A stretch of 64,000 nt of DNA from IMG/VR virus record IMGVR_UViG_3300009314_000003, positions 32,001-96,000 of that record. One strand, given 5' to 3'. The position numbers and the translations under genes were made by a program. Each line of letters opens with the position of its first letter. Position 1 is the first letter of the stretch. The notes under the pieces were generated by a model, which saw nothing but the letters and a program-made list of their open reading frames with translations, was not told the DNA's origin and ran no database searches. This stretch comes from a virus. Positions 3,294-61,160 of this stretch are shown here, piece by piece.

Positions 3294-4175
3294 CTGTTAA
3301 TCTCGGCCGCGCAGGAGATTGTACTCGCCGACGGTTCTTTTCACAAGGCCGGCGACTTAATTGGTTGTGGTCCTGTTGAGGGTTTGGGTTGGTTGGTTTC
3401 TTCTCCGCGAAAGCAAATGATAGAGATTTATCCTGTGGAAGAGGGTTCATCCGCTCGACTTTGTGGTCTTGTGAGCTCAAATGGCCGCAGTATCTTATGT
3501 GGGGAGGAGACAGAACTCTTAGGGGCCAAGGGGTGGATATCCTTCGCCGAGCATGTTAGGCAATATAAAAGATGTCGATGGTTAAAAATATATCCCTATC
3601 TCATTAACAGAATTAATAACTATGGGAGGGATGAGCGTGGTCAGGAGTGGGTGGATGCCTTTGTTGCCTCTCTGGTTGAGCTGTCACGTCGTAGTCCGCA
3701 TATGGGCGAGCGTGGTACTATCACAATTCCTTCCTACCTTGGTAAATTAAATGAAGCATCCCTTAATCGTTTTCTGGGGGCCTTATTTAACGCATTCTCC
3801 AAAAGTAAGAGAACTGCCTTTATAAGAAGGATTGATTATGAGAGTCAGCAGCGATTATTTAGCTTATTTACGAGGACTGGCTCCTACAAAACAACCAGCC
3901 GGGGTAAAAGCAGGATTTATGAGGTTGGTATACCTGGCGCTAATTTACATAAGAGGCCTGATGAAAACACCAACAACAGAGGAGGTTGGTGGCCATCACC
4001 AAATTTATTAATCCGTACAAGTAATATTGATGATTCTGTAGTTACTTGTTGTATAAACCGCTATAGGATAGTTGATCGTGATATATATGAGACCCTTGTT
4101 GAGGTCCGCACCCAAATTGGTAATTTCATTGATAAGAGCTTCATATGTCGGACCGAAAAGATCAATCCAGCCTAG
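3294..4175 (+). CDS. Free-standing degenerate intein-like protein (Hint-like ends, eroded LAGLIDADG-like core); start uncertain
   Basis: The frame is open upstream of the track's 3384 start. Block A-like ISAAQEIVLADGSF, block B-like SSNGRSILCGEETELLGAKGW, block E-like IPSYLGKLNEASLNRFLGALF, block F/G-like LVEVRTQIGNFIDKSFICRT. Catalytic residues are absent. Confidence 0.55.
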   Translation: MLISAAQEIVLADGSFHKAGDLIGCGPVEGLGWLVSSPRKQMIEIYPVEEGSSARLCGLVSSNGRSILCGEETELLGAKGWISFAEHVRQYKRCRWLKIYPYLINRINNYGRDERGQEWVDAFVASLVELSRRSPHMGERGTITIPSYLGKLNEASLNRFLGALFNAFSKSKRTAFIRRIDYESQQRLFSLFTRTGSYKTTSRGKSRIYEVGIPGANLHKRPDENTNNRGGWWPSPNLLIRTSNIDDSVVTCCINRYRIVDRDIYETLVEVRTQIGNFIDKSFICRTEKINPA

Positions 4176-40400: not shown

Positions 40401-43400
40401 ACCAAGGATCTTGGGTTCTTCTTCGGTGTATATTTGGCCGAGGGTAGTTTGGATCCTTCTCCCAATAAAGTAAATAAACACAACAGGGGCCCGGAGAGAA
40501 TACAGTTCGCCCTTCATAAAGATGAAACAGATGCCATAGGAAGACGCCTTATTCGTATTGCTCGGGAGTACTTCAATATTGATCCATCTAAATGCCACAT
40601 TACACCCAACCACGGAAATGGCATAAGATTAAGACTCCAATCTCATGCTCAGCTGGCTATAACTATGCATCTCCTTCTAGGATCAAAGGAGAACAAATAT
40701 CTACACCCATCCCTATCCAACGGTCCTACTAAGTTTATTATTGGTTTATTGGAGGGGCTACTAATCGGAGACGGTTGCGCATTTAACAATGAGAATTTAA
40801 CCACTATAACCCCTACAATTAGCCTAACAACCACTGCTTATGGTATTGTCCAGGCAGTACGTTATGCAATGACTAGAATAGGGCTACATCCTCCAGTAAC
40901 AACCAGGGATGATAGTATAGTTGGGAGAAAAACAATAATTAATAGTCACGTAGCGATCCATAAGCTCCCATCATATAGACTGCGGTTATCTGGGTATACA
41001 GCTGTTAAGCTAAATCAGTTAATACACCTCTACTCTGGGGACGGGGATTTCAATTATAAGCCTATACGCAAGAAGGCCCCAGAGGTTTTTACCTTATATG
41101 ATTACACTTATTTAAAGGTTAAGAAAGTAGTTAGCAAGAGATATAAAGGTCGTGTATATGATTTCGAGATTGGTGGGGATCATAGCTTTATGACTACTGC
41201 TTGTATAGTTCATAACTGTACCAGTGCCCTGTTATGGGATTCTGATGAACCATTCGTAGATGAGCCAGTCTTTGCCCCGGCTAGTGAGATGGACTCAATG
41301 GGACGTGCTTACTGGGATATGAATATTGGTGATCCATTCTTAATTGGCGAGGGTATACGTAGAATGATCCCCCGGCCCAGAACAAGTTATGAGAAGGTTG
41401 ATGACTTACTCAGAAACGATATGCCAGGATGGCTTCCTGAGAACTTTCGGCGTGGCGACCCCTTTTGCATTTCTCCGGATACTATGGTAGAGGTTTATGA
41501 TGGTCTGATTCGGGCGGATGGGGTCAAGGAGGGTGATTTGATTCGTACTATTAGGGGCCGGTATTTCCCTATTAACAAGATTGCTGTAAGAGAGGTAGAT
41601 GAACCGGTATACAAGATTAAACTTGCTGGTGTGGAATATATAACCACCGCAACAGCTGAACATCCATTTAGAATTCATCCTGGAAAATGGGCACTAGCTG
41701 AGGATTTAAGGCCAGGTATGTATGTTGCTTACCCGCGGCTGAAAATAGATTTCCCCACAGAGTTAGAAATTCTAGGTAGAAGGTTTCAGCTTTCCGGCCC
41801 ACTGGCTTACATACTAGGTAATGTACTTAAGTATGGCCGAGTGGGTGATTTGTCCCTGGCTGTTACAGGTGTGCCTGAGGGGGACAGTTTTGCCCGGACG
41901 GTACAAAACATATTAGGAATTAAACTTAGCAAGCAGGGTCATAGCAGAAGTAAAATATTGCTTAGTCTCTTCAAGGATCTTAATCTAAGGCTCCCTCCCA
42001 TGTTTTATGGGGGCCCATTAAATATATTCGCCTCATTCTTAAAACCATTTACGGACGAGCCTCTACCGGGCCGCCGATTCATTACCCTAACCCTACCCAA
42101 TATGTCATTAGCATACCAGGTATGGAATTGTCTAATACAACATGACGTCATAGGACAAATCGATGGATGCCAGATAACAATACCAAGATGGATGCTTGTG
42201 GGTTTCAATAAGAATGCTGTTCTCATAGACTATTTATGTGGAGATAGGGAGATATTACGCTACGGAGATATAAGTACCATACCCTATAAGAAACACGAAA
42301 GGGGTAATGATGATCACCTCTATATAAGAGTGGATGAGGTTGAGGAAATACATTATAAAGGCCCGGTCTATGGTTTTGAGGTTGATAGGGATAATACTTT
42401 TTGTGTTGCGGGCTGTATAAGTCATAACACCCGTATTCCCAGGGGCGAGGCCTTACTCCCTGGGCCGGGGTACGAATCAATGTTTAACATGGTTCTTGAC
42501 TTCCCCACCGGGGCCAGTAGGCTTGGTTATTCAGCCTATGAACAGGCCTTGCATATGATTGGCCTTAAAGATCCCCTCTCCGAGGATGAGGAAGAGATCA
42601 TGAGTGAGGGAACTGCAATCCACAAAATGGTACAGGCTCAGCTGACAAAGGAGGGGGTACTAAAAAAGGTTGAGGCATATGTAACAGATCCCTACAACCG
42701 TGTTTCATCCTATGTTGACGGTGTTATGGGGTCCGCCTACGGCGACATTCCGCTGGAGATTAAGAGCATCTCCAGTAAAGGTTTTCAGCAACTTACCCGG
42801 CCGAAGCACAAACATAACATCCAGTTGAATGCTTACCTGCATATGATGAAGGCACGTGAGGGTAAAATCTTGTATGTTAATAGGACTGACCCATCTCAGA
42901 CTAAGGAATTTAAGGTCCGTTATGACCCACGTCTCTGGGCGCAGACCCTGGCTGAATTGGAGACTGCTAGGGAATATGCCAGTCAGTTCCTGGGTGAGGG
43001 ATATGGCTCCTCCACGAATGGCTACTCATATGTAGATAGAATGCAGGTACTCATGAATGCCGCCCCCTTTTCCACAGAGTATAGAGAGGTAGCTCAAATT
43101 GTAGGGCAGCAGTCTGAGCTCGGACTCTTATCTGATGAGCAGGAGAACCACCTGAAGAGAATGAGGCGTTATCACCAGAACATGATGAGGCGCCATGAGC
43201 TCTATCCACATCGTTTCAAATGGAATCAAATTCTCGATCCGGATCCACAGTACCAGCAACTTAATAGTAATGAACTAATCAAGGCAGCTGCTGAATATCC
43301 ACTCCCGGCCAGAGTAGCTGGTTCGATCTGGGAATACATGACCCATCTCCGTTCGCCACTTCATAGCAAACTTATTGGCCAATACTCCCCCGAGGAACAG

Positions 43401-44669
43401 TATGAGAGGACTGTGTTATATGGGAGTACACACAAGAATTGGGCGAATCCCATATCCGATTTCGCTGAGCCTTATATGCGCGGACTTAAGTCTGTAACTG
43501 ATCCGGTACAGGGGGCTCTCTCTTTTGGCCTGGGTGGGTCCCTCTTCGGCGGACTACCTGGGGCCATCCTGGCTGGTACGTTTGGAGCTGTGTATGGCTC
43601 GGCTCATGGTATATACCGAGCAGCTACTGACAGCCGCTATGTGCCGGAGAGATTTGAGGAGATGCAGGAAATGGAGGAGTATTTTGATCGCCTCAAGTAC
43701 TATCGCTCCCATACACTGTACAAAGCCACCGGAGACAGACGTTTCCTGGATGAGATGGGCCGAACTGCAGTTGGTTGGTCAGCAAAAACTCGTGGCGGGA
43801 GGATGACCAGACAACGGAGGGAGGATGATACCAAGCGGAGCCCGTACGCCAATTATGCCAGGCAGCCAACAATATATGATATTACAGGTAATTCATCCAT
43901 ATACACCAGGATGATGAATTGGATGGGCGGTGTATTACCACCAGAGGGCATGACCCAATCCTCTCGCTGGGCTAATCAGTCATACTCTACAGCTGGTGGC
44001 ACAAACAGGGGCCATATGTCCCCCTGGTCAGGTCAGGATACAGAACGTGACTTGGGATTCAGTGCTAATGAGGAAAACCTGCTTGATTATAGTGGCGCTT
44101 ATGCTGCTATGCCTTACTGGGACAGACCCTTCTTCAACGCCTTTCTAACAACTCCTTATGAAAAGAGGGAAGATATCCTTGGGACGGTGGACAGAACCTT
44201 GGCTAGTATGTTACAGGCAGCCTGGGGTCACGGTGAGCCGGATATTGAGGGTATTGGCAATTACTTTGAGGACCACTATCAACCGCCCGCCGGTCATCCT
44301 ATAATGCTTCCGGGGGCTGAGTTTGAGGACTACAAATATGAGACCATAGATCAGGCTGGCCTGGCTGCTCATGACTTTGGTCTTGGCTGGAGAGATCAGC
44401 TGCGAAGAATTCAATCAAGCCCCATAGATATTAAACCCGTTAACATTAATGCTGAAGGCCCATCGAAGAAAGGCCTATCCCTGGATGCCGGACAAATTAA
44501 GCAATCTATGCACCAGATACTTGCTAGACTAGGTTACCAATCCACCCCTGTCAAGGTGTCAACAACAGAGTCTCTTACCGATTCAGTCTCTCTACGTGTA
44601 AACATCAAGAGGGACTCTACCAATCAAATTATTAACCTACATACAGAGTCAATGCGTTATGGCGGATAA
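31491..44669 (+). CDS. Giant tape-measure-position virion protein (4392-aa precursor, about 2210 aa after removal of 5 inteins) with a PD-(D/E)XK nuclease domain
   Basis: Follows the chaperones; Gly-rich hydrophobic segments; five Hint/LAGLIDADG inserts; motifs GTAIH..VDG..LEIKS..QLNAY. Confidence 0.8.
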   Translation: MPDQRETFEELQPQEGGGALKQLAGLGLALVGWGIGLTLARFGFTAGKAAALKRLAGIKKPATEVLKRYKTAAIYAQDKGGSFSHFASKAGMPGGKALADIRYAAEESPIIKSFRTSTKNKSILQKVGTYRSFPRGQRIELGRGLAAHYGREMAFVAPTFYVGEQMLGRLGWGAHQRDAHQGPAWWNIPGHAVNFARWLPGFLTIDLGARLGFGLVGAAKRATSNAVFKSQPLRSLPEIITNARRYAKDNLDSPVVNLITSTLASVRAFSHFVGGKTDANNQTKRFAERSYKTISGYRRTGATANEYITENTRRLFKDYRRFKAKAKSDLKRALSTDYTRTGAELTRLFDPDAAKSSPIHIFKKGFGVEYGGMREMSRHLFERKMPLVARLSGLESLRMRHLKGIGQSEEWKRIFRVIYKGIQSAREFGDAGNQVRKLVKGGYSEGGKRSFDDLIVDSRLFFDPVTKEVRNLSGFTFKDIIGRSLHYASKRLTFNTPLGKIDLVSIFGGRAVASYGMPSIVRLEHGRVPTKAIQRLYGVEVYPTPTDPSAKQFTQVLAIKDRKSGYTVWADVYGGDASGGTGLEVVARNMSLVSSTDSTKMMSVYAMRESMWPPLDKNALNERFKGGGITPTIRKWLHNKFDLFGGGKFYPSVWELALHHMRGDSRVWTIFHPEGLPARVASGIYKMKDLAASGGQKASYQIQYLDAAYRKARTEASKLLTRDDILSRILRKAYEGDTIKLWGVKTEFKIKDIIDEKIVEDGLPEPLRLVREILKIDETASADSRLGRNLKQIIDELTDRMPEMGGFHKYVSEGGVGETATVKAKRFLAERAILREADTLGAARQLDTPHAGDTVKNIVDDILVAFDDLAKTNAITTKDLLKVKMGMQGIRWEHEVRNLGSLSGKSQITGRGIDKLFQAVGERGLMAKEYKDVESLFDFLRKAKMEDPELWDSYRRMTGKFKTTMMVDSQRHALEMMSDVFGESPYLLFEGGPMGWAKNVFSWGYDTFGRTMDLVGLGWDRGRFPKFMGKDSIAGLWTKRFALMGGVAAAYQTVDTVTDTTPIFAGSLAHDELVAVRHKRTGLVSLVKIGEFVEDGRADNNQFEAWTNHGGKIGWYDITQGIRHKRETTLVRVELESGADLFVTDNHSLFTGSESNLQLQAPEVGKHIVALESQYPSGAGISRVDISDLVTSLPEKLYVAVEDPSLNRGNYKLRADAEDIWGSNYVRWLRDRVTYHKAVYRTTYEAYTECPKKEFTKIRHFRSPVKIPSGWELTREFGYVLGMFAAEGCATKSNGSVYGVLFSAKDYGSLGHRYKGHIRSRLVSALKTVFPDAKISHSHKKIILHGYLYYWLFHDVFKMGHGASNKRLPDFALNGPEGFRRGLIDGYIDGDGYQKQTGDTIRPAGIGSTSRELVTQVYLLLRMEGCQVKLSSREPRQGQIIDGRVVNGNYRTYAITIRDLHTDLYDVSNSNHARTIRSNRVSSAIASMSACEEQPDFVYDISVAGAEKFIAGFGFLYAHNTALDEGTTVFLADQAVRARLFAGYVYDITGITDTMKYLEGLMPKSTQVLPGAAMGFAMGGVPGAITGGILNAWTQPVLKEGPLSFLSLLPPTAPFVSDMTKSFKELQDLYSGRELEAVRKGSGWPFGSVPIEGCLTERTEVLVADGGTTSIRAIKVGDCVIGPAGPVLVTATKDRYTTPSEQLYTIISRYNRSDEVEITGNHPVLVAEDPFRCSVVSNGTCSPRRNQKCHKCSHPYWQSYKLGWKRADDITSDDLLAIPRRRFNSSSEHVIRWVDFLGDDYKYVGGHVWVNSKLGTFGNEALRAIVDLVLDDLPHKDSEKQRRIEAIATQSGRMPRQVRQKMVDVRDRLRDGCPRDCIDYVDLGSLAEYLPLSYETGRFLGLYAAEGSVCDNGTISFAFHANEIEYHQFVESCMRRYFGSDTVTHVSGPQTAGTNQWAVQCFSTPIASILGRMFNRGASSKDIPARLFEANDDFLRGFLRGLFDGDGHHNLIKPRVEMRLASKDLINQVQLVLEHFGVVGFVSQVDNNGFDAYEILVSSSNARALLQLMEGVHESTFYDSLPGKGAWVCGDFIFTEVHKISSRSCPEGTHVYDIEVAEGESFRTVGLHLHNSRITAYSPNWYPMLKAQYKATPALYGSKLEQWAFKDLPFVDFSFGDLIDPDYLTRKHYYDRPYISCLTPGTLIIGDRITAIDKIREGSHVYTKSGELSKVTEVHRRNVKEHITNIRIAKHSEPLRLTWNHKVMVMQTEVCSHRHNSSKSRRVCRFGLTNSDCVKCTNKLYKNYELGWVRAKHIEPGDIVVKSIPDTSEIVESINISDFVLDYPVYDGSVYYAPRANKLSAKLAWIKAHIPQHKDNEKGALKRLSAAYDIPLGYLYNHYYTCNTNQWERWTIPDALPLDKNLFTILGYYLAEGSLTTKGVSFVFHEKELNTYVKELINAASNLGFKSSSWRYKEGSKAIELTIYSVILRKMVDSLCGRAEQKHIHSLLMKAPRESRIAFVRSYINGDGCYTAVDRGIWTVTYTSVVPSISYQIQQMLSTLGVFAGIHKSECPPYKIKINDKVNGISSGVYYIGTINGVECRKLLDLFEMDHPQTNPPAPNRWGWMDNKFIYLAVRNVDREYYEGPVYDITVDGEHNYQTSSAIVHNSDIPFLEVPLVGPALAATAGQAFRAIHPMTLDHPMHKEEVQRALQEGVAYSWRGEEEPGFGPRYTGSVYTDESYSQGRIMGTLEGRSPTIRSNMDVRQIISEQIYRGWIEPAGLAGFCLPEGSEVITYGGLYKKVEDINLGDKLITHRGHPGKVTRVYKRFVDEDIIELSVSHYADVPVQLTGEHPVLVAKTKPCLKTHDKQHCLPLHGSSRCYCCPREFNTNLEWVVAKDIKEGDFVVQPSSIGLPHSGLLDLGKMDEVVNYKRVNNNSRCSRDRDHKYFVIEHDNIRWWNGSKKRFPRYLELTKDLGFFFGVYLAEGSLDPSPNKVNKHNRGPERIQFALHKDETDAIGRRLIRIAREYFNIDPSKCHITPNHGNGIRLRLQSHAQLAITMHLLLGSKENKYLHPSLSNGPTKFIIGLLEGLLIGDGCAFNNENLTTITPTISLTTTAYGIVQAVRYAMTRIGLHPPVTTRDDSIVGRKTIINSHVAIHKLPSYRLRLSGYTAVKLNQLIHLYSGDGDFNYKPIRKKAPEVFTLYDYTYLKVKKVVSKRYKGRVYDFEIGGDHSFMTTACIVHNCTSALLWDSDEPFVDEPVFAPASEMDSMGRAYWDMNIGDPFLIGEGIRRMIPRPRTSYEKVDDLLRNDMPGWLPENFRRGDPFCISPDTMVEVYDGLIRADGVKEGDLIRTIRGRYFPINKIAVREVDEPVYKIKLAGVEYITTATAEHPFRIHPGKWALAEDLRPGMYVAYPRLKIDFPTELEILGRRFQLSGPLAYILGNVLKYGRVGDLSLAVTGVPEGDSFARTVQNILGIKLSKQGHSRSKILLSLFKDLNLRLPPMFYGGPLNIFASFLKPFTDEPLPGRRFITLTLPNMSLAYQVWNCLIQHDVIGQIDGCQITIPRWMLVGFNKNAVLIDYLCGDREILRYGDISTIPYKKHERGNDDHLYIRVDEVEEIHYKGPVYGFEVDRDNTFCVAGCISHNTRIPRGEALLPGPGYESMFNMVLDFPTGASRLGYSAYEQALHMIGLKDPLSEDEEEIMSEGTAIHKMVQAQLTKEGVLKKVEAYVTDPYNRVSSYVDGVMGSAYGDIPLEIKSISSKGFQQLTRPKHKHNIQLNAYLHMMKAREGKILYVNRTDPSQTKEFKVRYDPRLWAQTLAELETAREYASQFLGEGYGSSTNGYSYVDRMQVLMNAAPFSTEYREVAQIVGQQSELGLLSDEQENHLKRMRRYHQNMMRRHELYPHRFKWNQILDPDPQYQQLNSNELIKAAAEYPLPARVAGSIWEYMTHLRSPLHSKLIGQYSPEEQYERTVLYGSTHKNWANPISDFAEPYMRGLKSVTDPVQGALSFGLGGSLFGGLPGAILAGTFGAVYGSAHGIYRAATDSRYVPERFEEMQEMEEYFDRLKYYRSHTLYKATGDRRFLDEMGRTAVGWSAKTRGGRMTRQRREDDTKRSPYANYARQPTIYDITGNSSIYTRMMNWMGGVLPPEGMTQSSRWANQSYSTAGGTNRGHMSPWSGQDTERDLGFSANEENLLDYSGAYAAMPYWDRPFFNAFLTTPYEKREDILGTVDRTLASMLQAAWGHGEPDIEGIGNYFEDHYQPPAGHPIMLPGAEFEDYKYETIDQAGLAAHDFGLGWRDQLRRIQSSPIDIKPVNINAEGPSKKGLSLDAGQIKQSMHQILARLGYQSTPVKVSTTESLTDSVSLRVNIKRDSTNQIINLHTESMRYGG
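34689..36050 (+). mobile_element. Intein 1 (454 aa, Ser1) with LAGLIDADG domain
   Basis: FAG|SLAHDE..VTDNHS..LGMFAAEG..IDGYIDGDG..VYDISV..YAHN|T. Confidence 0.93.
36450..37883 (+). mobile_element. Intein 2 (478 aa) with LAGLIDADG domain
   Basis: IEG|CLTERT..ITGNHP..LGLYAAEG..LRGLFDGDG..VYDIEV..HLHN|S. Confidence 0.95.
38079..39488 (+). mobile_element. Intein 3 (470 aa) with LAGLIDADG domain
   Basis: YIS|CLTPGT..LTWNHK..LGYYLAEG..VRSYINGDG..VYDITV..IVHN|S. Confidence 0.95.
39840..41216 (+). mobile_element. Intein 4 (459 aa) with LAGLIDADG domain
   Basis: AGF|CLPEGS..LTGEHP..FGVYLAEG..LEGLLIGDG..VYDFEI..IVHN|C. Confidence 0.95.
41466..42428 (+). mobile_element. Intein 5 (321 aa) with degenerate endonuclease
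   Basis: DPF|CISPDT..ATAEHP..VYGFEV..ISHN|T. The LAGLIDADG motifs are eroded (YILGNVLKYG, SFLKPFTDE). Confidence 0.92.
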
Positions 44670-47600
44670 AGAGAAAGATACAAGAGACATACTGATATCC
44701 TGGTCCCTAATTCTCCCTACCCTCCTGGGGATTGTAAAGGCTAATAAGAATCTACCTCGCCTGGCAGAGCTACAGGATCTACTTATCAGATACCTCAGGG
44801 GTAGGGTATCTATGTCTGATGTTATTTCAGGCCGTAAGGCTATACGGGCCGTATTAACTAAGGACGTGGAGCTTGAGAAGTTTGTCGAAGCCCGTAAGCA
44901 AGCATGGCAGGATCATCTCACCGGCAAGACTGGAAAGGAATTTAGTTCAAACATATCTGCTAAGTTTGTTGAGGACATAGAGGGCGGAAAAGATTTAGTT
45001 GAGACCAAAATTGATATCCACACCAGGGATACTCTGGCAAGCAGAATCGATGTTGTTAGGGAAAATCTGGGGAAACGGATTGAGGATATCAAGAATAGAA
45101 CTGGTATCAAGACCTCTGTATTGAATAGGAAGGACGCTATCAAGGCAAGGTCCACCTTTGACTTATTTGGAGCGCAGGTATGGTATGATATGTTTGGCAG
45201 TACAGGTCCTATATCTGGGGGTTCTGCCTGGGATATGATGGATGCACATGCGTGGTTCAGGGCCTATAAAACTTCAGGGCATATATCATTTACCGGGAAC
45301 ACACAGGACCTGGAGGTGAATAGTATTAGAAGTCGACTTTCGTCGTTTGATACATCACCCGAGAGTGCTGATGTAGACATACTTAAGAAATATGTTACTG
45401 AGCTGGAGAGAATTGAAAAGCAATTTGAGGCTCCTCAGCTAAAACCCATAAGTGGCAGCAGAGTCAAAGATCCCATATGGACCTCAATTATTGGCAACAG
45501 AGTGGCAACCTCGAATGGTAGGATTACTACTATTGGCGGAAAGGAGGTTATGGGGCTTGGTGCTATTGAGAGTAGTATTCAACAGAGCTTACTTGGCGAG
45601 TTGGAGCAGAACCTCGCACCACCAAAGCAGGGATTCCAAACCAGATTTGAGGATATATTCTATAACTATTCCCCCCAGACACAAAGATTTTATGATGTTG
45701 TATTATCACCTCAGTCACAAGCTAAGGAAGTTGCTAAGGTATTCAGATCGATGTCTGAACACCTGGGGAGATTGAAACGTGGTGGGGCAAATACTGTGGC
45801 TGCTAAGCTTGCGAAGGATGAGAGCACACAACGGGCCCTGACAAAGGTTATAAACAACATGGAGCTGCGACTGGAGGTTACTGAGGAGCACGCCTTAGGA
45901 CGTCCCTTCAAGTACTTTAAGTTCGTACTCGATTCCTCAGGGGCCGAGGTAGATAGGAGTATAAAGGTAGGGGATAAGACACTAGACAAACTGGTTGGTC
46001 GTATGGAGTTCTACTTCCCCACCGTCCAGGAAGGTTATTTAATTACACGCCCCGGCGTTCATCCTCTAACATCTCCCGCCACATGGCCAGCAGGGGCTAA
46101 GGGGATATCCCAGTTCATGTCTATACCAAGTACCGTAGCCTTGGATATAACTCAGCACATGCCAAAGTTCTATAATGAAATGATGGATGCCATGCTCAGA
46201 GGTGATAGGGCCCAAAACTATCTTATGAGACGCATTAATCATGCCATGGAACTGGCATCTCCTGCTAAAGGCACCGTAGGAGATATCTTTCGTATAGCCG
46301 CCGCCAAACATGTCGAGGGTAGAATATATGCTGGGTTGGAAGATTCCAGGATGTATATAAACGCCCTAAAGGCAAAGTCGGCTGTGGAAAACGTTAAAAG
46401 GATGCACACAACAGGTAAATCGCGTATCCTGGTATTTGATACTGAGTATGGTAAGGAAGGCCTTCTCTCCAGATCTTTGGGGGTACAGCGTATGGCACGG
46501 GACCCGGGCGTAAAGGTCTGGTCCATTGGCTATCAGATCCTTGATTATGAGGCCTCTTCAGGGAGGATGACGGGTATTATGGGTAAACCAGGCAAGCTTA
46601 TGATAAAGCCCAAAAACTGGAATAGTATCAAGAGTAATGTGGAGCAGTGGCTACGCAGGCAATTGCCCGATGAGAAAGCTGTGGAGAAGATAATTAATAA
46701 GATTCAGGAGGGTGAAGGACTACGGGAAGCCCTAAAGAAGCTGGTTGATGATATAAGGACCTATGGAAAGAACGATATATATGTCTCTGGTTTTGCTAGT
46801 ATGGATGCGGATTTGAAGAACCTGGCCCAGATGATTGATGCTGAATTCAGTAAGAAGGAGGCCTTAGAATGGAAGACGCAACTGAGTTATCTCCTTGATG
46901 TAGATATGGAACACGGGGCCCGTAGACAAATTGATGTTATGCGTCTTTACCAGGGCTTTTCCTTTGCCAGACCTGAGACAGCTATATCAAATGCCGCAGT
47001 ATTTGAAAGCCTGTATGGTATTGATTCAACGCGCTTCGGTGAGCTATTGACAATGGTAAAGGGGAAGAAGCAGGTGGAGCTAAAGGTCGCAGCGAAGAAG
47101 TTGTGGAGCAGCAGTTCAGAAATAGCCAAGGCCGAGCACGCATTCAAGACCTTTGAGAATATGAAGCTTGGGGTGACGGAGTATCATTCGCACATGGCCG
47201 AGTTTGACTGGACAATACACGCCATGAGTATGAAGAGGTTGTTTGGCCGCGTCATGGGCCCCAATACACTCGATCGTGAGGCTCTGGAACGCCTGTCAAT
47301 TGCTGCTGAGATACAACGTAACAGGTTAGCCGGTTACAAATCACCCTGGCACTACGTAACAGATACCATTCTGAATCCTCTCTTCGCCTCTACTTACTCA
47401 GTAAGTTCGTTTGATGGGGCCGGTACAAGTTATTCAGATCCCAATATGGCCCAACTCTCTCTCCATGCTATGCCTAAGGCACAGGCCGCGCGGATGATTG
47501 GGAGTTTACTGAACCCGGATCGTGTTTTACCTGGTGGTTTACTACATAATCTCCTCCGCCAGAAGTATCAATCCTTCTCAGGGCATATCCTATCTGTTAA

Positions 47601-50600
47601 TACAGGCCTCATGTTCAAGGATATGCACGCAGACATGACCCAGGTCATGAAGGAGGCAGACCTGCCTTTCCTAGGTATTGGTGAAGTAATGGGTACTCCC
47701 CACACCACCGCAATGCGTCAGCACATAATTAATACCTATATGGGCAGCTACGGCAATTATGCAAGGAACAATCTTAGAGTAACCCTAGGAGACAGAGCTG
47801 CGGAGGCGGCCATGAAAAAGACTACGATGCACATGACCGATAGTATCATAGGTCTTGTGGCTTACCTACCGGATAGGCATGGTTACACACACGATGCCGC
47901 CCTAAGAGTTAATAAGGCCATATTCGAATCAGTTAATGTACTTGGTCATGGAGACCGACCAGGCATCCGGAATATAGAATTGGAGATACCAATTCCTGAT
48001 GAATGGAAGAACAAGAGTGGTATGGCCATAAAAGATGTCCTGAAGAGACAAGGTTTTCACCCTGCCATACAAAGGCTTGCACGTGAATATGGAGGAAGAG
48101 TCTCCGGTATAGTTGACAAGAGGTGGGAATATTTCAAGATGGATGTGCTGGGTGAGGGGGATATAAGTGACCGCATCATCCACCCAGGTGATGAACTAAT
48201 TAAGGAGGTACAGGGTAGACGTGAATATCTCCGGTTGACTGATGTAGGTAGGAAATATGATAAGAAGTACCCTGCCGCTGTGGTTGGTATGAAGGTTGAT
48301 CTCGAACAAAATAATATTATAATTACCGTCAGTGAACACTCTCGCCCCATGCTGACCACCAAAATATCAACCGGATCTACTAAAACACTGTGGGGAACTG
48401 CCAGCTCAAAGGTGGAGAATGTAAATACAAAGGGCCGTGCTGTGGGTGGTGGTATGCTCTTGTTGGAGGGGTCAATAAAATCCCTAAAGGACTATGGTGC
48501 TATTGTCATGGCACAAATCGGACGTGTATTGAGGCATGTGTACAGCAGTAACCTCGGGCCTCTTGGGCAGGAGGGAGCTATTAAAAAGGCTTTGACACCT
48601 CTTCTCGGCAAGGACCTGGTTGAGGATATAACATTCCAGGATAACAGGCTGTTGACTACAGGAGGTAGGTCTATAGTCATCAGAAAACCTGAGCTGGGAA
48701 ACAAGATACAGACCCATCTCTCCCGTCACAGTGCCTCCGTACCCAAATTATATGACATGGTGGAGGCAGCTGGTATAACTATCGGTGAGGTGCGTAAGTT
48801 GTTCAATATCATAACGAGTAATATACTGGAGAGTGAAACAGAGAGGGAGAAGCTCTTTAATCAATTAGGCAGGGACCACCTGAACTCTCTGGAGAGAGAG
48901 AAGGACAGGTTACTAGGTAAAATAGCAACAGCCGGTGAGGGGCGAAGTAAGAAAGAGATTGAGAGGAGTAAGAACATGGTCTCGAGACAAATTAGGAGTT
49001 GGAAGGCCTTTGTCGAGAGACAGGATGAATCTGGGACAGCCCTATTTGATTTTATGGCTACCAAACCTTTTGCGGATAGTGCTGTACTAACCTCACATAA
49101 TGCCATAATTGCTCTCGAGAGCTTACATATCGTAGAATCTGGGCCCATCGACTTTATGAGGTCCTTTGACAGGATGGAGAGCTTCTACGGTTTTCCACTG
49201 GGCCCACAGAAATTAAGTCCGGCGGATGCTAATGTCCTGGAGGATGCTGTCCGGCGTGCCGCTGGAGAGGATATAGCAGCACTGGAAATAATGGTCGAAA
49301 TGGACAAGATGCGCGGCTTTGCCTATATAAGTAAAAAGACAGGCAGACCTATAATCAGGGAATCCATACAAGCTGTTAACCTGGCTATGAAATTTCTTAG
49401 AGAAGGCAGGCCGGCCCTGGCAGCGGCCCTTGGTGAGGAGGGGACTACCAAGATATTGAATTATGAGGCTGTGCAACAGCTAGCAGAGAAATCTGGCTTC
49501 ATAGAGCTTATGTCCACCAAGGATATGGAATCTGTTCTGACAAAGCTGGATGCTATTACCGATGAGAGACACGTAGGACGAAAGGTGGCTGACGCCCTGG
49601 TGGATATGGGCATCCTCGGCGCGAAGGAGGGTATGAGTGAGCACGACCTGATGAAACTATTAAATGACTTTGGTATCTCGGGACCAGATGTAGAATACTT
49701 TACAGACGTGATAAACCAGGACAGGATTCACCTTGTGGACAAGACTCTCCTGAATGAGATCAAAATGTTCCGCACTACAAAGGGTAGTATGAAGGACATA
49801 ACCTTGCTGGAAGTTCAAAATACCAGCAGCGCAATCAAGGCTTTGAAAGCTCGTGTGGGAAAGAGTAGGGCAGATGTAAAGAGAGTAGAGAAGCTTGAGG
49901 GATGGCTGAAGAATACAGGTCGGACTAGCTTGTATAAGGAAGGCTTCACCTTTGATCTTAGGGAACATCTATTTGGCTATCTCATGGACAACCCGAATAT
50001 GGCGAAGGGAAAGACAGATATACTTCTACGGCAGGTATCTAACTACCTAGAGCGTATGGCGAAGAGGGGATCCCTGCGGGTCGGTGCAGATTTCATTCCC
50101 ATACCAAAGGCTGCCGTACTGATGTCTATCCTCCAATCCTCTAACCTAAGTAACCTCCTGGGAGGAAAAAATGCCTTCCTTGGAGGGGCCGCAGTGTCTA
50201 CCCTGGAAGTAATGAGAGATGTGATGCAGTTCAATCAAGCAACCAAAGATATTGCTGGTCTTGGTGATGGTGCAAAAAAATCTGTGGAGGAGTTAATTGA
50301 GAACTGGACGTCTAAGGTACAACAGCTGGAGCATTCCATAGGAGTGCTGCAGGAACGGGTAATTGGGCCCTCCGTATCTCAGCTCATCAAGAAGGCCTTT
50401 ACCCTATATGCCCCCACCTCATACGGCAAGTTGTTACACCCCCTCCATCTGCTTCCTACACTCCAGAATAAGTTGTACGGAGCTCCTGGCGGCCTGGAGA
50501 AGGCCCTGAGTAACTTTCCTAAGTCCGAAGTTATCAAGATAAATAATAAGGTGTTTGCAGAGATAGATATTAAGAAGGCCTTTGCTAATCTAGTTGATGC

Positions 50601-52563
50601 ACCCTCCGAGGGGGGTTCCCAGTTGTTTGGACCTATGGACGGCGGTCTGCAGAGAATAAGGTTCAAAGGCCTGGGAGTCAATGAAGCGATCATGCCGATG
50701 CATGTGGCTAAGGAGCAGGTAATTAGAATAGCTAAGCAGCACGGCGGTTCAATACCTAAACCCAAACTGGTGAGGGATTGGCTTATGGGCAAAACTGCCT
50801 CCCCCTTCCCAATCCACCGCGGTAAGCAGCCAATTATATATAGTGGTACCAGCTTGGCCAAGGTGTATGTAGTACCAGATGTTCTGTGGGAACTACATGG
50901 AGGGCTTGATATAGATGTCAAGAAACAGTCAAAGATGGGCAACTTACATGGCCTTGTCTATATAGATCCCGTGGCGGCTATATCAGACCTGGCTGACTGG
51001 GATGGTGATTTAGGGATGATGGTCTTCGCCGGCAATACCCCAAGTACAAGGGCCATACAAGCTGCGACCAATCGGACTGAGGAACTTGTGAAATATCTAA
51101 CCTGGAAGCAGAAGGTATCTGGTGATGCCCCGCTGGATAGGGTAACTGATGCCGTTACTGTCGACCTTGATCCGGAGAACTTTAAGAAGACCGGCAGGGT
51201 AACTTATATGGTACCTAATAAGAATTACAAGAAGGTAATTGATACAACTGCTACGTTGGACATTTTCCCTGTGAAAGACTTCTACGATCGCTCCAATCAT
51301 GATTTCACTGTTCTCAAGACATCTCTGATTGATGAATATATTACCAACGAATTGGTGACCGGCAGGCTTGGAAATATGCACAAGTACCTACAGTCACAGG
51401 TCCTTGGCAAACCATCTGTCTGGGAGCAGTTGTCACATGAACTCTCCGACAATAAGAAATTGGCTAAGTTTCTTAAGGAGGAAGGCATCTCTGCCTTAGA
51501 GGTACAGGAGGCTGTGCACTATATCCTTAATAAGGAGGCCAAATCGGGTATGAAATTTGCCACTGCTGTTGAGAAGTGGTCAGGAAACCTGGTTGAGGTA
51601 ATGACTGTCCAGAAGATCCTTGGGGGTGAACAGATTAGTGGATCCTCCGCAAGATTGAAGAAGGATCTTATCAATAAAATACTCAGCAGCAATCAAAGTC
51701 TGCTGAGTGGCTCAATTGTAGATGAATCTCAGGGTGTTGTGAATAGGCTGGCATTAATGCCGGAAAAGCCGGATGCATCCCTGATGCAATTTATCTCGCC
51801 CGACAAGATAAGCAGGTTAAGCGACGCAGATGTAAGGGATATGGCTAGGGTATCCAGGAAACTGACAGTGGATGTTGGCCTTATAATACTTGCCTCGCAA
51901 AAGGCAGCTGAATTCTTGAATAAACCGGATGCCTTCGGTGTTACCTATATAAAAAAGGCCCTGGACTCCTCCACAGCTGCAATACAGGGTAACATAGGAT
52001 TCCACTTCTCCCTTATGGCGGGGCTGGGGGCCTCGGCAAAGTGGGAGGACTTCGCCTCAGGTATATTTGGTAAGGACAATCTTGCCTACAGCCTAAGTGA
52101 ATTTCAGCGGGGTATGCCGATGTCCGGCCGCCGCACAATATTAGAATCCATTAAGACAGGTATACGTGAGCATGTAGGTGAAGAGGGTTACAGATCCCTA
52201 GGTAAGAGTGTGAAATGGGCAGGCCTCGCAGCCTTAGCCCTAATGGCCCTTGATCCTAATGCTAATAGTAAACTCCTAGGACCTACCCCCGGTGAGGGAG
52301 GTGAAAAATATGATCTCCCAACCATCCAATCCATCTTGGATGTGTATAAGCAGAAGAAGCCAAGGCTGCTCGAGCCCAGTGCTACTATGATGGATAAGTT
52401 GGCTACACTGACAGGGCTGCCAATAGAGTCCTTGCCACAACTAAAACAAGGGAGGAATCTTCCTCCACGACCGAGTATACGCTACAATAATAGAAGGAAG
52501 AAATACAGCCGTCATAATATCGGACAATACATCCGTGATGGAAACGGAGTACTACTGACCTAA
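44659..52563 (+). CDS. Giant protein: DEDDh exonuclease domain plus putative single-chain two-barrel RNA polymerase (candidate virion RNAP)
   Basis: VFDTE / MDAD / HMAEFD; beta-like VAYLPDRHGYTHD and TKISTGSTK; beta'-like HRGKQP and IDPVAAISDLADWDGD. Confidence 0.72.
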   Translation: MADKEKDTRDILISWSLILPTLLGIVKANKNLPRLAELQDLLIRYLRGRVSMSDVISGRKAIRAVLTKDVELEKFVEARKQAWQDHLTGKTGKEFSSNISAKFVEDIEGGKDLVETKIDIHTRDTLASRIDVVRENLGKRIEDIKNRTGIKTSVLNRKDAIKARSTFDLFGAQVWYDMFGSTGPISGGSAWDMMDAHAWFRAYKTSGHISFTGNTQDLEVNSIRSRLSSFDTSPESADVDILKKYVTELERIEKQFEAPQLKPISGSRVKDPIWTSIIGNRVATSNGRITTIGGKEVMGLGAIESSIQQSLLGELEQNLAPPKQGFQTRFEDIFYNYSPQTQRFYDVVLSPQSQAKEVAKVFRSMSEHLGRLKRGGANTVAAKLAKDESTQRALTKVINNMELRLEVTEEHALGRPFKYFKFVLDSSGAEVDRSIKVGDKTLDKLVGRMEFYFPTVQEGYLITRPGVHPLTSPATWPAGAKGISQFMSIPSTVALDITQHMPKFYNEMMDAMLRGDRAQNYLMRRINHAMELASPAKGTVGDIFRIAAAKHVEGRIYAGLEDSRMYINALKAKSAVENVKRMHTTGKSRILVFDTEYGKEGLLSRSLGVQRMARDPGVKVWSIGYQILDYEASSGRMTGIMGKPGKLMIKPKNWNSIKSNVEQWLRRQLPDEKAVEKIINKIQEGEGLREALKKLVDDIRTYGKNDIYVSGFASMDADLKNLAQMIDAEFSKKEALEWKTQLSYLLDVDMEHGARRQIDVMRLYQGFSFARPETAISNAAVFESLYGIDSTRFGELLTMVKGKKQVELKVAAKKLWSSSSEIAKAEHAFKTFENMKLGVTEYHSHMAEFDWTIHAMSMKRLFGRVMGPNTLDREALERLSIAAEIQRNRLAGYKSPWHYVTDTILNPLFASTYSVSSFDGAGTSYSDPNMAQLSLHAMPKAQAARMIGSLLNPDRVLPGGLLHNLLRQKYQSFSGHILSVNTGLMFKDMHADMTQVMKEADLPFLGIGEVMGTPHTTAMRQHIINTYMGSYGNYARNNLRVTLGDRAAEAAMKKTTMHMTDSIIGLVAYLPDRHGYTHDAALRVNKAIFESVNVLGHGDRPGIRNIELEIPIPDEWKNKSGMAIKDVLKRQGFHPAIQRLAREYGGRVSGIVDKRWEYFKMDVLGEGDISDRIIHPGDELIKEVQGRREYLRLTDVGRKYDKKYPAAVVGMKVDLEQNNIIITVSEHSRPMLTTKISTGSTKTLWGTASSKVENVNTKGRAVGGGMLLLEGSIKSLKDYGAIVMAQIGRVLRHVYSSNLGPLGQEGAIKKALTPLLGKDLVEDITFQDNRLLTTGGRSIVIRKPELGNKIQTHLSRHSASVPKLYDMVEAAGITIGEVRKLFNIITSNILESETEREKLFNQLGRDHLNSLEREKDRLLGKIATAGEGRSKKEIERSKNMVSRQIRSWKAFVERQDESGTALFDFMATKPFADSAVLTSHNAIIALESLHIVESGPIDFMRSFDRMESFYGFPLGPQKLSPADANVLEDAVRRAAGEDIAALEIMVEMDKMRGFAYISKKTGRPIIRESIQAVNLAMKFLREGRPALAAALGEEGTTKILNYEAVQQLAEKSGFIELMSTKDMESVLTKLDAITDERHVGRKVADALVDMGILGAKEGMSEHDLMKLLNDFGISGPDVEYFTDVINQDRIHLVDKTLLNEIKMFRTTKGSMKDITLLEVQNTSSAIKALKARVGKSRADVKRVEKLEGWLKNTGRTSLYKEGFTFDLREHLFGYLMDNPNMAKGKTDILLRQVSNYLERMAKRGSLRVGADFIPIPKAAVLMSILQSSNLSNLLGGKNAFLGGAAVSTLEVMRDVMQFNQATKDIAGLGDGAKKSVEELIENWTSKVQQLEHSIGVLQERVIGPSVSQLIKKAFTLYAPTSYGKLLHPLHLLPTLQNKLYGAPGGLEKALSNFPKSEVIKINNKVFAEIDIKKAFANLVDAPSEGGSQLFGPMDGGLQRIRFKGLGVNEAIMPMHVAKEQVIRIAKQHGGSIPKPKLVRDWLMGKTASPFPIHRGKQPIIYSGTSLAKVYVVPDVLWELHGGLDIDVKKQSKMGNLHGLVYIDPVAAISDLADWDGDLGMMVFAGNTPSTRAIQAATNRTEELVKYLTWKQKVSGDAPLDRVTDAVTVDLDPENFKKTGRVTYMVPNKNYKKVIDTTATLDIFPVKDFYDRSNHDFTVLKTSLIDEYITNELVTGRLGNMHKYLQSQVLGKPSVWEQLSHELSDNKKLAKFLKEEGISALEVQEAVHYILNKEAKSGMKFATAVEKWSGNLVEVMTVQKILGGEQISGSSARLKKDLINKILSSNQSLLSGSIVDESQGVVNRLALMPEKPDASLMQFISPDKISRLSDADVRDMARVSRKLTVDVGLIILASQKAAEFLNKPDAFGVTYIKKALDSSTAAIQGNIGFHFSLMAGLGASAKWEDFASGIFGKDNLAYSLSEFQRGMPMSGRRTILESIKTGIREHVGEEGYRSLGKSVKWAGLAALALMALDPNANSKLLGPTPGEGGEKYDLPTIQSILDVYKQKKPRLLEPSATMMDKLATLTGLPIESLPQLKQGRNLPPRPSIRYNNRRKKYSRHNIGQYIRDGNGVLLT

Positions 52564-52565
52564 TT

Positions 52566-52751
52566 ATGCATATTACTATAGAGGTTGACCTAAATAATAT
52601 TCCCTATGATGTTGATGTCACTGAGATTATTGGCTATCTACAATCATATCTTCAAGAGACATACCAGGTTGATGTGAATATGATGGTGGATGACTACGAC
52701 TTCGTCAATAAGATTGACCTGGGCCGGCAGATGAAGGCTATGAAGCGTTAA
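52566..52751 (+). CDS. Small acidic hypothetical protein
   Basis: 61-aa ORF filling the gap between two giant genes; TAATG coupling to the next gene. Confidence 0.65.
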   Translation: MHITIEVDLNNIPYDVDVTEIIGYLQSYLQETYQVDVNMMVDDYDFVNKIDLGRQMKAMKR

Positions 52752-55700
52752 TGTCTATTTACAACACCACTGACAGAATCAACTATCTCTCAACCGTTGA
52801 GCGCATCTCCAAGGAAAACGGCATTGATCCTGACTTTGTAGATGCCATGATAGGTGCAGAGTGCTCCTGGGACCTCAATTTGGCTGGCGGGACAGGCGCA
52901 CTTGGATTAATGCAACTTATTTCGGACAGCAGTATTGTGGAGATTATACAATGGCGGGAATCTCAATTCCATGGACAAGATCTGAAGGAATTAACAACCA
53001 AAGCAGGAGAAGATCCAGAAATCAATATTCGGATTGGTATTGACTATTTGAGGTATATTGACCTTCACCCCAGCACTTATGTCAGACCGAATGCTGCTCT
53101 CCTCGCCGCATCATATAATCAGGGTTGGCCCACTGTGGGGGACGCCGGCTGGACGGTCCCTACAGATGCTCAGGTCTACGTAAATAATATTCAAAAGCAG
53201 ATGCGTGTCTTGAAGAATAACAGTAGCTTCCTGCTGGCTGAGTATTATCCCATCGAGCTTGAGGACACCTCCGCCGACGATCTCGAGAAGAAGAAGCTAT
53301 ACTACAAGATGAGCGACCCCAAGGAGTTGGGCCTCCTGGTTATTGGTGACCTGCAATTCACCGTCCCACCCACAGCCATTAACTTCTCCTCAGACAGTCA
53401 GGCCATCTCTATTCCCACCCTTCGCTCCTCAGGTGATCCAGTCATTACCAGCAACACAGCAGTACCAAGGGCCCAGGTGGTTCTTTACTTCACAGGTGTG
53501 AATGCAATTAATAGGGAACTGAGACCCCTTTACGCTATGTTCCATAAGGCACCCTTCACCACGGTGCAGAACAACACCCTCCACAAACTTATGGTAGGTA
53601 AGAAGCAGGAGCAGTTGATGAATACATCTACTAAAGATTTTTCCCCTATCCCTATTATGCTGGAAGGAATTACCCTACACACCGTTCCAGGATTTCCTGG
53701 TACGATACAGGCCAATGTCTCCCTGGCATTTATAAATCACTTCCCCCATGTATCGGAGATGAAGTTCTTCAAAAAGACAGAAGACGCCAAGGCCCAAGCC
53801 AGGTATATGACTTACCGAAGTAGTAAGGCCTACAACACCATCAACCTTAGGGAGGATGGTAACCTCACATACATTACAGCGGAGGGAACCCCTGGTACCG
53901 CAGGTAAACCAGCGGGTGGTAAAACTACTCTCTATCCCGGGGGTAGTTGGCCCTTCATACGTCACTACAGGGGTCTCCTAAGGGAGTTTAAGGAGTCATA
54001 CTTTGCTGATATGTCTAATAGGGTAGAACCTTGGTGTGAATATAATGCAACTTCTGCGCAAGGTATAAAAATCCAATACAATAGCATCTTAGTCTACGAC
54101 ACAATGGAGCAAAACCTACTACGCAACCTGCGAGGAATAAGTGACATGTTGCACCGCCTCAAGGTAATGAGGGCATTGGCCACCAAGGACATTGCCATTA
54201 ACGCGGCCACGGGAGGTGGGCCTAAGAGCGTACTTATTGATGGTAAAGAAGTAGACGTTCAACCGACTGATATTGGAATGTTTACCTTTGAAGGTAGAGG
54301 AGCAGAAATATTAGAAAAGTATTTTAGTTTCTGGGAGCATTATATCGATGCCTTCGCGGGTATAAGATATACACTTAATGAGCTGAGGACAGAGATTACA
54401 CAGGCTTATAACCAATTTAAAACGATAACGGAGGAAAAGGCAGAAGGCATCGAGGTTGATTTCACCTTCCTAAGTGATGACGACCAACTCACAAATAACA
54501 GTGAGGTGATTAAGAAGAGCCTGTTACAATATGTTTATCTCCTACGTAAGAGAAAAGAACTCGCCAGTGAGACGGGAATGGATGAGGAGAAAAGTAAGCT
54601 AAATATTGCAATAGATAAGTATCATAAACTCTATGAAGCTATGGGACAGCACTTTAATGATTCCGTTGAGGACTGGGCAAAGGAGGAAAAGGTTAATCCT
54701 AAGATAGTCCATCCCATCGAATTTACTCTGGGGTGGGATGATACACTTAGTCCCAAATACAATGAGAATGCACTAAAGGAGGCACTAGAGAAACAGAAGG
54801 ATACGGCGGTTCAGAAGGCTAAACTACGATATAATACTGTCGTCAACTCTATAGGTGTTTCGTATCAGAATAATATTACTCCTATTCCTATTCTCGCCTT
54901 CGAGAACCCAACTTTCCAACATATGGGAATATCTAACGCAGTGGTCACTATCAATCTCAAGACAAAAGACGAAGATCTCCTTGCCCGTTTGACTGATGTA
55001 AGGCAAAGTATAGCTCATATCTCACGTGCTGTTGCGTCCGGCGGCAATAACGACCTGGCTGATCTGGAGCTATCAAAAATCACCATCACTGATGGCCTAT
55101 TGAACTCCCTCGGCCTGAACGAATTTGCCCTCAGGGACCTGGATGTACGGAGTATCTCCGGCTCTCCGGGATGGTACGAGATTACTTTGGAGCTTGTACA
55201 AAATGAAATGGATCTTACTAAGTTTGAACAGTTAAGCAGTATTCCCTCCTACCAACTTCCGAGGGATGCAGTGGCAACCCTCTTTCCATCCAAGGATTTT
55301 GAGCCGTATGACTTTTTTGACTCGCTTAAGGAGGAATATAATAAGAAAAACAAAGCACTTCGTGAGCGTATAATGGATTACAGATTCTATACGTCAGAAG
55401 TATGCAGGAGGGTGATAAAGAAACATTATGCAAGGCCTACAGCGAAAGACGCATTTGGGGAATATGTACTTGGCTCGGAGTATGGAGTAAGTGTCGAGCT
55501 AATTAGAGAACTGCCGGGGGGTAACCCATATTACGAATTCATTATCGAGGTGTATAATATCGATACCGGGGTGAAAGATACCTCCAGGACAAAATTCTAC
55601 AGGAGTATGGTTGGGCCATTACTCAGACGAGCAACCATTATCTGCCAAATGGCCCGTGCCTTTGAGAATGAAAAGAATTACGAACTAGGTGTCGGGTCCT

Positions 55701-60662: not shown

Positions 60663-61160
60663 GTGTTTAATATAGCGGACAAAACCCTAGGCTGGACAGA
60701 AGATGGTGATCTCCTAATACACAAACCAAGTGATAGGCTCGCTTCTGTCGTAGGTTTTGATAGTTTGAAACGGAGAATCATGTTCTATTTAAGGACCCAA
60801 CCTGGTGATTACGGCTATGATGTTGGGGCGGGAATAGGTCTAGAGAACTTTGCCGGCCGTCCTAATACAGACGAAAATAGAGAAATGATATACCAAAATA
60901 TCTTTGACAATTTGTATGACGACAGCGTTACGTATCCATACCATTTTAGTGTTGATGTGAAGAAGGCTGAACGCCATGATGTAAGTATTACTATAAATGT
61001 AACAGGACCAACAGGCACAACAGAGGTGGCGCTCATCTTTGATTTGGAACGTGGATACATAAGAACGAAGGAGGAATTTATAAGCGACATAGAAGAAATT
61101 ACCCTACCCTATGGGCAAGAGGAAAATGAGAATATATATCTTAAGAGGAAGAATAGCTAA
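60663..61160 (+). CDS. Baseplate wedge / sheath initiator (gp25-like)
   Basis: DGDLLI, LKRRIMFYLRTQPGDY, GIGLENFAGRPN. Confidence 0.8.
   Translation: MFNIADKTLGWTEDGDLLIHKPSDRLASVVGFDSLKRRIMFYLRTQPGDYGYDVGAGIGLENFAGRPNTDENREMIYQNIFDNLYDDSVTYPYHFSVDVKKAERHDVSITINVTGPTGTTEVALIFDLERGYIRTKEEFISDIEEITLPYGQEENENIYLKRKNS

Follow-up and report, generated by a model that had tools for sequence, protein, structure and literature searches.

Virion RNA polymerases (RNAPs) enable phages to begin transcription without the host enzyme. A virion two-barrel RNAP that shares one chain with the tail tape measure protein has been proven crystallographically for gp96 of phage P23-45 (also P74-26, G20c, and TSP4; PMC10770324), and a single-subunit two-barrel RNAP, gp66, is packaged in the virion of phi14:2, a crAss-like phage (PDB 6VR4; bioRxiv 10.1101/2020.03.07.982082). 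Host-independent transcription of the first phage genes has been shown for both gp96 (PMC10770324) and gp66 (bioRxiv 10.1101/2020.03.07.982082). The searchable literature documents a tail-borne two-barrel RNAP in a single lineage of Thermus siphoviruses (PMC10770324). Here, we describe P0001, a giant protein encoded in the tail module of a contractile-tailed phage, which was found in a window of 64,000 nucleotides (nt) comprising bases 32001–96000 of the IMG/VR record IMGVR_UViG_3300009314_000003 (147,988 bp, linear, ~77% complete, i.e., ~23% missing).

P0001 is interpreted, with a probability that we place at roughly 70%, as a very divergent single-chain two-barrel polymerase in which a beta-like part is followed by a beta'-like part, most likely a DNA-dependent RNAP that is delivered through the tail; the interpretation is drawn from sequence comparisons. 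Established in this analysis are the conservation of the motifs, the profile similarity to beta' and to exonucleases, and the conserved synteny of the tail module. No paper describing the P0001 family was found in the literature.

Like gp96, P0001 is giant, is encoded in a tailed phage's tape-measure slot, and carries a DFDGD-type loop that is conserved among its relatives, with both proteins being otherwise invisible to ordinary RNAP searches; by analogy, the tail-delivered transcription of first genes may be shared as well. Unlike the siphovirus that encodes gp96, the phage of P0001 is contractile-tailed, as indicated by its sheath gene. The polymerase part would lie mid-protein in 2634 amino acids (aa) instead of at the N-terminus of 5002 aa, the candidate barrels are spaced by ~880 aa instead of ~200, and P0001 is a separate open reading frame (ORF) with no metallopeptidase or other Pfam domain, no clear transmembrane domain, and a DEDDh exonuclease-like domain fused upstream. 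With the gp66/QDE-1/YonO clade, P0001 has in common its large size, a DxDxD loop, and a gene located beside those of other giant virion proteins (virion packaging referring to gp66), but the loop is of the DFDID type in that clade and of the ADFDGD type in the P0001 family.

Relatives and conservation of P0001

P0001 was searched as a whole protein and in six pieces against Pfam and PHROGs, by tblastn against 50,697 phage records, and, together with the family profile, against PDB sequences, each time without a match, and a word-indexed protein search returned a 99% identical fragment only. An exhaustive HMMER search over 1.84 billion representative proteins yielded, besides a fragment from the same phage, only three relatives of full length (P0003, 2636 aa; P0004, 2634 aa; P0005, 2695 aa; 25–29% identity to P0001), which have the same gene order. 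Scans of IMG/VR and of JGI metagenomes with the family alignments added one further locus only, which belongs to the P0004 lineage.

About one column in ten is invariant in the four-sequence alignment, and conservation in the family peaks at the two ends of the protein, within the first 28 residues and the last 130. Invariant residues of the N-terminal segment include K4, K6, D7, R9, D10, P20, T21, G24, V26, K27, and A28, and this segment may have a role in virion incorporation or ejection. The C-terminal ~130 aa matched no known family and may serve in assembly or ejection.

Similarity to the active-site region of beta'

A sequence-only reading of the window had proposed a hidden polymerase in P0001 on the basis of short strings; every one of them occurs once in the protein, at the residues listed in Table 1, and the range that it had marked (47520–51560) corresponds to aa 955–2300. 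The block that it took to be beta'-like, i.e., HRGKQP together with the DxDGD region, resembles beta' beyond chance, as judged by hhalign, shuffles, and reversed controls. A2112, D2113, D2115, and D2117 are invariant at an overall family identity of only ~25%, and the objection that the aspartates might vary among homologs falls away. P2058 of HRGKQP is invariant as well. The W in DWDGD and the K in place of R, which had been named as deviations, are present but private to this phage, the former because the relatives read ADFDGD or ADFDRD, and the latter with K2056 replacing Arg in P0001 alone; the relatives are canonical at both positions. An EF-hand-like, Ca-binding reading of DxDGD was rejected by inspection, as Gly is lacking at position 6 and Glu at position 12.

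Initial templates (single sequences as well as 23 proteobacterial beta' segments) matched the catalytic loop in hhalign (P = 0.004). A diverse beta' template (48 sequences; effective number of sequences, Neff, 5.2) was drawn from IMG/VR ORFs with NADFDGD; all 80 of the 80 ORFs sampled with this heptapeptide were BLAST-detectable rpoC homologs (23–40% identity to E. coli), so that it can be regarded as specific in viral DNA. The family profile aligned to the 48-sequence profile with a probability (Prob) of 72.8%, E = 3.2e-5, and a score of 46.8 over 106 columns, placing P0001 2005–2136 on E. coli beta' 361–484. Three blocks were matched in order, namely LGINq..iP..AK to L.L.qcGlP..mA, NRQP..H to NRAPTLH, and IDPl....ADFDGD to LHPLVCAAYNADFDGD. 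The match was stable over four query alignments and two settings (Prob 73–77%, 106–119 columns, E = 2e-5 to 1.3e-4), with P0003 as master, a 335-aa or 1200-aa query, and another match-state rule as variants.

Column shuffles scored 14.7 ± 2.0 (maximum 19.9), none of the 40 reaching 46.8, and controls with reversed query or template gave P = 0.28 and 0.74. Alignments of the same depth from other parts of P0001 gave P = 0.05–0.5 against the beta' template. When the motif was deleted from both sides, the upstream flank aligned in register (P0001 2005–2077 to beta' 361–447) with a score of 19.6 and P = 0.01, a score reached by none of 60 shuffles. The proven RNAP gp96 served as positive control: its three-sequence profile (from P23-45, a variant, and TSP4), aligned to the same template, gave E = 5.8e-5 over 54 columns. 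The beta' similarities of the two families are equal in strength (E ~5e-5), and from these comparable scores it follows that the P0001 family resembles beta' at least as clearly as does gp96, which is published in structure and activity (PMC10770324). The 60-sequence profile of the crAss gp66 family gave P = 0.17 against this template. Homology of the beta'-like part to the double-psi beta-barrel DPBB-A of beta', reaching beyond the motif, is supported by these profile comparisons.

Among the profiles compared, canonical beta' (RNA_pol_Rpb1_2, PF00623) is the nearest to the P0001 family. The earlier suggestion of a QDE-1/YonO-type affinity found no backing, in that the 60-sequence gp66 profile matched the family over 13 columns at the motif only (P = 0.42; YonO and QDE-1 themselves lie outside this comparison), and membership in the crAss gp66 family was rejected. 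Membership in the gp96 family was likewise rejected (29 columns around the motif, P = 0.006 versus 0.03 for the reversed control). Unlike cellular beta and beta', P0001 lies below every HMMER and Pfam threshold, and bridge helix, trigger loop, and other beta blocks were undetected in it. A conserved block, D2225..K2242, follows downstream of the beta'-like region; the equivalences proposed for TGRLGNMH and EAKSG reached no statistical significance.

The beta-like region and the candidate lysine barrel

The region proposed as beta-like is conserved in the family, for example at R955, P958, G959, G960, L962, N964, L966, R967, K969, and Q971 and at L1070, P1071, and D1072. No statistical significance was obtained for the equivalence of VLPGG and VAYLPD to beta, nor for that of LIPFLEHDDANR. 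The spacing of 276 aa between LIPFLEHDDANR and the lysine motif resembles the 281 aa seen in one phage fusion, which is anecdotal. As for the two lysines expected to be conserved on this barrel, K1235 is invariant, together with G1239, T1241, and G1246, but K1242 is not; the relatives carry their second Lys, in xKG, three residues later.

Comparison was made with six single ORFs from the IMG/VR sample that represent phage beta-beta' fusions (L181, L223, L224, L225, L226, and L236). These are ~1800–2200 aa long, with BLAST-detectable rpoB-like and rpoC-like halves, GDK..KG at 485–1310, and NADFDGD a further 600–700 aa downstream of it. The whole P0001 core matched the fusions best at the beta' block; the second-best match, collinear with the first, placed P0001 1195–1254 on GDK..G.KG. 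The same alignment came out on top when aa 940–1330 were compared with the beta half of the fusions (score 25.2, hhalign P = 0.06, reached by 2 of 100 shuffles; reversed control P = 0.52). The gp96 and gp66 profiles gave no match at the GDK..G.KG motif of the fusions.

The proposed beta-like barrel is only hinted at, with its best match falling at the lysine motif, and it is non-significant against beta profiles. The gp96 and gp66 families also fail against the beta profile (P = 0.14 and 0.62), and since the proven gp96 and gp66 fail it, this test has little power. We take the alignments to the fusions as a hint of a beta-like lysine barrel around K1235, in agreement with the earlier proposal built on AAVVGMKV, IIITV, and K1235. 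As in the fusions, the beta-like part precedes the beta'-like part, and the 878 aa that separate the lysine motif from the Asp motif are similar in magnitude to the 600–740 aa in fused or concatenated subunits. Unlike the P0001 family, the fusions are BLAST-detectable as rpoB/rpoC homologs.

A DEDDh exonuclease-like domain

Upstream of the candidate barrels, a putative exonuclease domain of the DEDDh (DnaQ/RNase T) type was recognised, with its candidate catalytic residues D594, E596, D718, H845, and D850 all invariant in the family. The profile of family aa 560–900 was compared by hhalign with an RNase_T-family profile of 31 sequences (30 domains from 13 bacterial genomes plus E. coli DnaQ) and reached a score of 24.9 and P = 0.0075 over 129 columns. 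D594/E596 aligned to DnaQ D12/E14 and D718 to D103, while a second, collinear match placed H845..D850 on DnaQ H162..D167. Shuffles scored 12.4 ± 1.9 (0 of 100 reached 24.9), and the reversed control gave P = 0.36. Searched against Pfam, the region had no hit even at E ≤ 10. The domain thus carries the ExoI DxE, the ExoII D, and the ExoIII H-x4-D of DnaQ/RNase T (PF00929) in the same order, but is ~100 aa longer through insertions, and this phage lacks the ExoII Asn. Overall, the presence of a DEDDh exonuclease-like domain in P0001 is moderately supported by these alignments.

The hallmark of proofreading DNA polymerases is a fused DEDDh 3'-5' exonuclease. We weighed the reading that P0001 is a two-barrel enzyme other than a DNA-dependent RNAP, i.e., a PolD-like DNA polymerase/primase or an RNA-dependent enzyme, with the DEDDh domain as proofreader. 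Apart from the domain itself, this reading draws on the gene content of the 148-kb record (~77% complete), in which no Pfam-detectable DNA polymerase of family A, B, or C was found, despite a clamp-loader-like gene, a RecD2-like helicase, and a ribonucleotide reductase with inteins; the absent DNA polymerase keeps DNA or primer synthesis by an exonuclease-polymerase fusion alive as a reading. The missing gene is weak evidence in a record of this completeness with genes riddled with inteins and introns, every relative carries this gene within its tail operon, and the loop is of the RNAP type (ADFDGD) with beta' as the best profile match. We consider a non-RNAP enzyme very unlikely.

We know of no described case of a DEDDh domain fused to a two-barrel polymerase. 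P0001 might be the first tail-delivered, single-chain two-barrel polymerase with its own proofreading or 3'-end processing or, alternatively, a PolD-like DNA polymerase/primase injected with the genome, a proposition that we regard as unlikely.

Weighing of alternative readings

Several results weigh against P0001 being a two-barrel RNAP. With the low-diversity beta' template and x-ADFDGD cut from both sides, the flanks were non-significant and the similarity shrank to the motif. Even with the diverse template, the downstream flank, which should hold bridge helix and trigger loop, gave P = 0.46, with 18 of 60 shuffles reaching its score. Profile-to-sequence methods (Pfam including PF00623 and PF00562, HMMER, PDB sequences) were blank, our own HMMER beta' profile scored the P0001 family at ≤3.7 bits, and no rpoC was recovered when the family profile was run, reciprocally, against five bacterial genomes. 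Beta profiles built from 15 and 59 sequences gave nothing significant in hhalign, with some local alignments out of order. ADFDGD had ~173 matches in 151 bacterial genomes, ~30 above one per genome (reversed control ~8), and occurs outside rpoC at ~0.2 per genome in bacteria, so that the hexapeptide alone is no proof. AlphaFold2 models were unusable both for aa 1131–2330 of P0001 (predicted local distance difference test, pLDDT, 34; predicted template modelling score, pTM, 0.27) and for the beta' region of P0003 (pLDDT 39); each was computed from a four-sequence alignment, and the models are poor because this alignment is too shallow. The model of P0001 showed the connector between the candidate barrels as mostly helical, albeit at low confidence.

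Some of these results would fit a tail protein that is structural or ejected, either resembling a tape measure or being inner-tail cargo, whose acidic cluster binds metal for a purpose other than polymerisation and whose likeness to beta' is convergent or due to chance. The gene occupies the tape-measure slot, the N- and C-termini are more conserved than the motifs, Pfam and HMMER give nothing, ADFDGD is not unique to rpoC, and the similarity is seen profile-to-profile only and concentrated in ~110 columns. Against this reading stand a motif-free flank that aligns in the correct register, three beta' sub-motifs in the right order (GlP..A, NRxP..H, and hxhxPh....ADFDGD), and a beta' score equal to that of a proven RNAP. 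The same chain also carries a second, independent signature of a nucleic-acid enzyme (DEDDh), and no strong transmembrane segment, peptidase domain, or tape-measure-typical repeat was seen in P0001. On balance, a purely structural role is unlikely.

A further point against activity is that P0001 deviates where its three relatives are canonical, with W2114 for F, K2056 for the R of NRxP, W1245 at the second Lys, the missing ExoII Asn, and changes in the LFDKTGE block. The family may thus comprise real polymerases, of which the copy in this phage has decayed catalytically and is kept for a structural or ejection role. This is countered by the retention of the three Asp, of K1235, and of all five DEDDh residues, by an ORF that is intact and of full length, and by the conservative nature of the changes from F to W and from R to K; decay strikes us as highly improbable.

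If P0001 is the two-barrel RNAP that we favour, it would be synthesised alongside the tail proteins, travel in the virion, and be passed into the host upon infection, as gene position and the precedents of gp96 and gp66 suggest, and it would there transcribe the first phage genes independently of the host RNA polymerase. The beta'-like barrel (aa ~2005–2136) would supply the Mg-binding triad D2113/D2115/D2117; basic residues for holding the incoming nucleoside triphosphate would come from the beta-like barrel, which most likely lies around K1235. The N-terminal DEDDh-type 3'-5' exonuclease-like domain may trim 3' ends, serving in proofreading or end processing. We infer the barrel folds, the beta-like barrel, template and product, and any coupling of exonuclease and polymerase, as well as presence in the virion and delivery.

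Genomic setting

The P0001 gene sits between the tail sheath/tube genes and the baseplate genes (Table 1), and its position in the tail module, which the sequence-only reading had named, is kept in the relatives. The order of a giant ORF with intein, the P0001 homologue, an ORF of 61–66 aa, and a second giant is constant on the contig of every relative, and the longer contigs (P0003 and P0004) continue with ORFs of 233 and 167 aa, followed by baseplate J. The 61–66-aa ORF is called in the contigs of three of the three relatives; the 188-nt gap between the P0001 gene and the next giant ORF (52563–52751) could fit one.

Three unrelated giants fill the tape-measure slot, and the situation in the relatives is similar; paralogy among the three was rejected, as none was detected on comparison. 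The counterparts of the upstream giant have 2571 aa with one intein, or >3390 aa with several. The downstream giant also matches a 1954-position "endolysin" PHROG, bears the sole strong hydrophobic segment among the three giants (aa 2264–2295, C-terminal), and is the more tape-measure-like of them. No other recognisable RNA polymerase was found in the 148-kb record with the Pfam RNAP families (including PF00623 and PF00562; record ~77% complete).

Inteins and introns are unusually abundant in this genome. Outside the window, the gene for the large subunit of ribonucleotide reductase (positions 139783–143952 of the record, minus strand) is interrupted twice, by intein-splicing stretches that carry homing endonucleases. 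An 11-mer, TAGTTATGTCA (or GACATAACTAA, which overlaps it), appears four to five times in the scarce intergenic DNA, mostly before structural genes, and may be a promoter or terminator element.

Table 1. Features of P0001 and of its surroundings, with positions in the window unless marked otherwise
Feature	Position	Strand	Residues and remarks
P0001 (whole ORF)	44659..52563	+	2634 aa; first 11 nt shared with the upstream giant ORF
N-terminal conserved segment	44659..44742	+	aa 1–28; moderately hydrophobic, below strict transmembrane threshold
DEDDh (DnaQ/RNase T-type) exonuclease-like domain	46423..47226	+	aa 589–856
Beta-like region as proposed	47524..48528	+	aa 956–1290; family-conserved, homology to beta not demonstrated
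VLPGGLLHNLLR			aa 956–967
VAYLPDRHGYTHDAALRV			aa 1067–1084; includes D1079
IIHPGDELI			aa 1173–1181
AAVVGMKV			aa 1206–1213
IIITV			aa 1220–1224
Candidate lysine barrel (DPBB-B)	48241..48420	+	aa 1195–1254; hairpin (AAVVGMKV, IIITV), K1235-x3-G1239-x-T1241 ... G1246
RPMLTTKISTGSTK			aa 1229–1242; includes K1235 and K1242
Connector between candidate barrels	48556..50658	+	~700 aa, aa 1300–2000; occupies clamp/connector position; no similarity found
Beta'-like active-site region (DPBB-A, ~ Pfam RNA_pol_Rpb1_2)	50671..51066	+	aa 2005–2136; LGVNEAIMP..AK, HRGKQP, VYIDPVAAISDLADWDGD
HRGKQP, candidate counterpart of beta' NRAP	50815..50832	+	aa 2053–2058; relatives NREP, NRDP, GRQP
VYIDPVAAISDLADWDGD			aa 2100–2117; includes D2113, D2115, D2117
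ADWDGD, putative Mg-binding catalytic loop	50992..51009	+	relatives ADFDGD (two), ADFDRD (one)
TGRLGNMH			aa 2234–2241
EAKSG			aa 2293–2297
C-terminal ~130 aa	52177..52560	+	aa 2507–2634; ...AGLAALALMALDPNAN..G.T.G.GGE.YDLP...; most conserved part of the protein
Large terminase	4145-6427		structural module of contractile-tailed phage
Portal	8189-9943		structural module
Major head protein	14315-15658		structural module
Tail sheath	19169-21826		structural module; basis for contractile tail
Homing-endonuclease ORFs	22372-23262, 24398-25309, 27244-28206	+	LAGLIDADG and phrog_4645 types; between sheath gene and giants
Three giant ORFs including P0001	31491-59887		after sheath and homing-endonuclease stretch, before baseplate genes
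Upstream giant ORF	31491-44669	+	4392 aa; five intein-splicing stretches, four LAGLIDADG domains, Cas4/RecB-like nuclease (aa 3694–3831)
Downstream giant ORF	52751-59887	+	2378 aa; N-terminal SLT lytic transglycosylase (aa 17–132)
Baseplate genes	60663-61160 and 61161-62366		downstream of giant ORFs
TAGTTATGTCA/GACATAACTAA sites	12280, 21938, 30262		also genome positions 14602 and 125255

Implications

If the RNAP reading of P0001 is true, the strategy of a tail-borne RNAP would extend to contractile-tailed phages, and this in a family that is invisible to standard annotation. Canonical beta' would be nearer to this family than the crAss/QDE-1 clade is, and the family members would bear an exonuclease domain that is without precedent on enzymes of this kind. 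Together with the adjoining giant, ejected-type protein with its nuclease and five inteins, P0001 would then suggest a cassette of nucleic-acid enzymes that is delivered with the genome.

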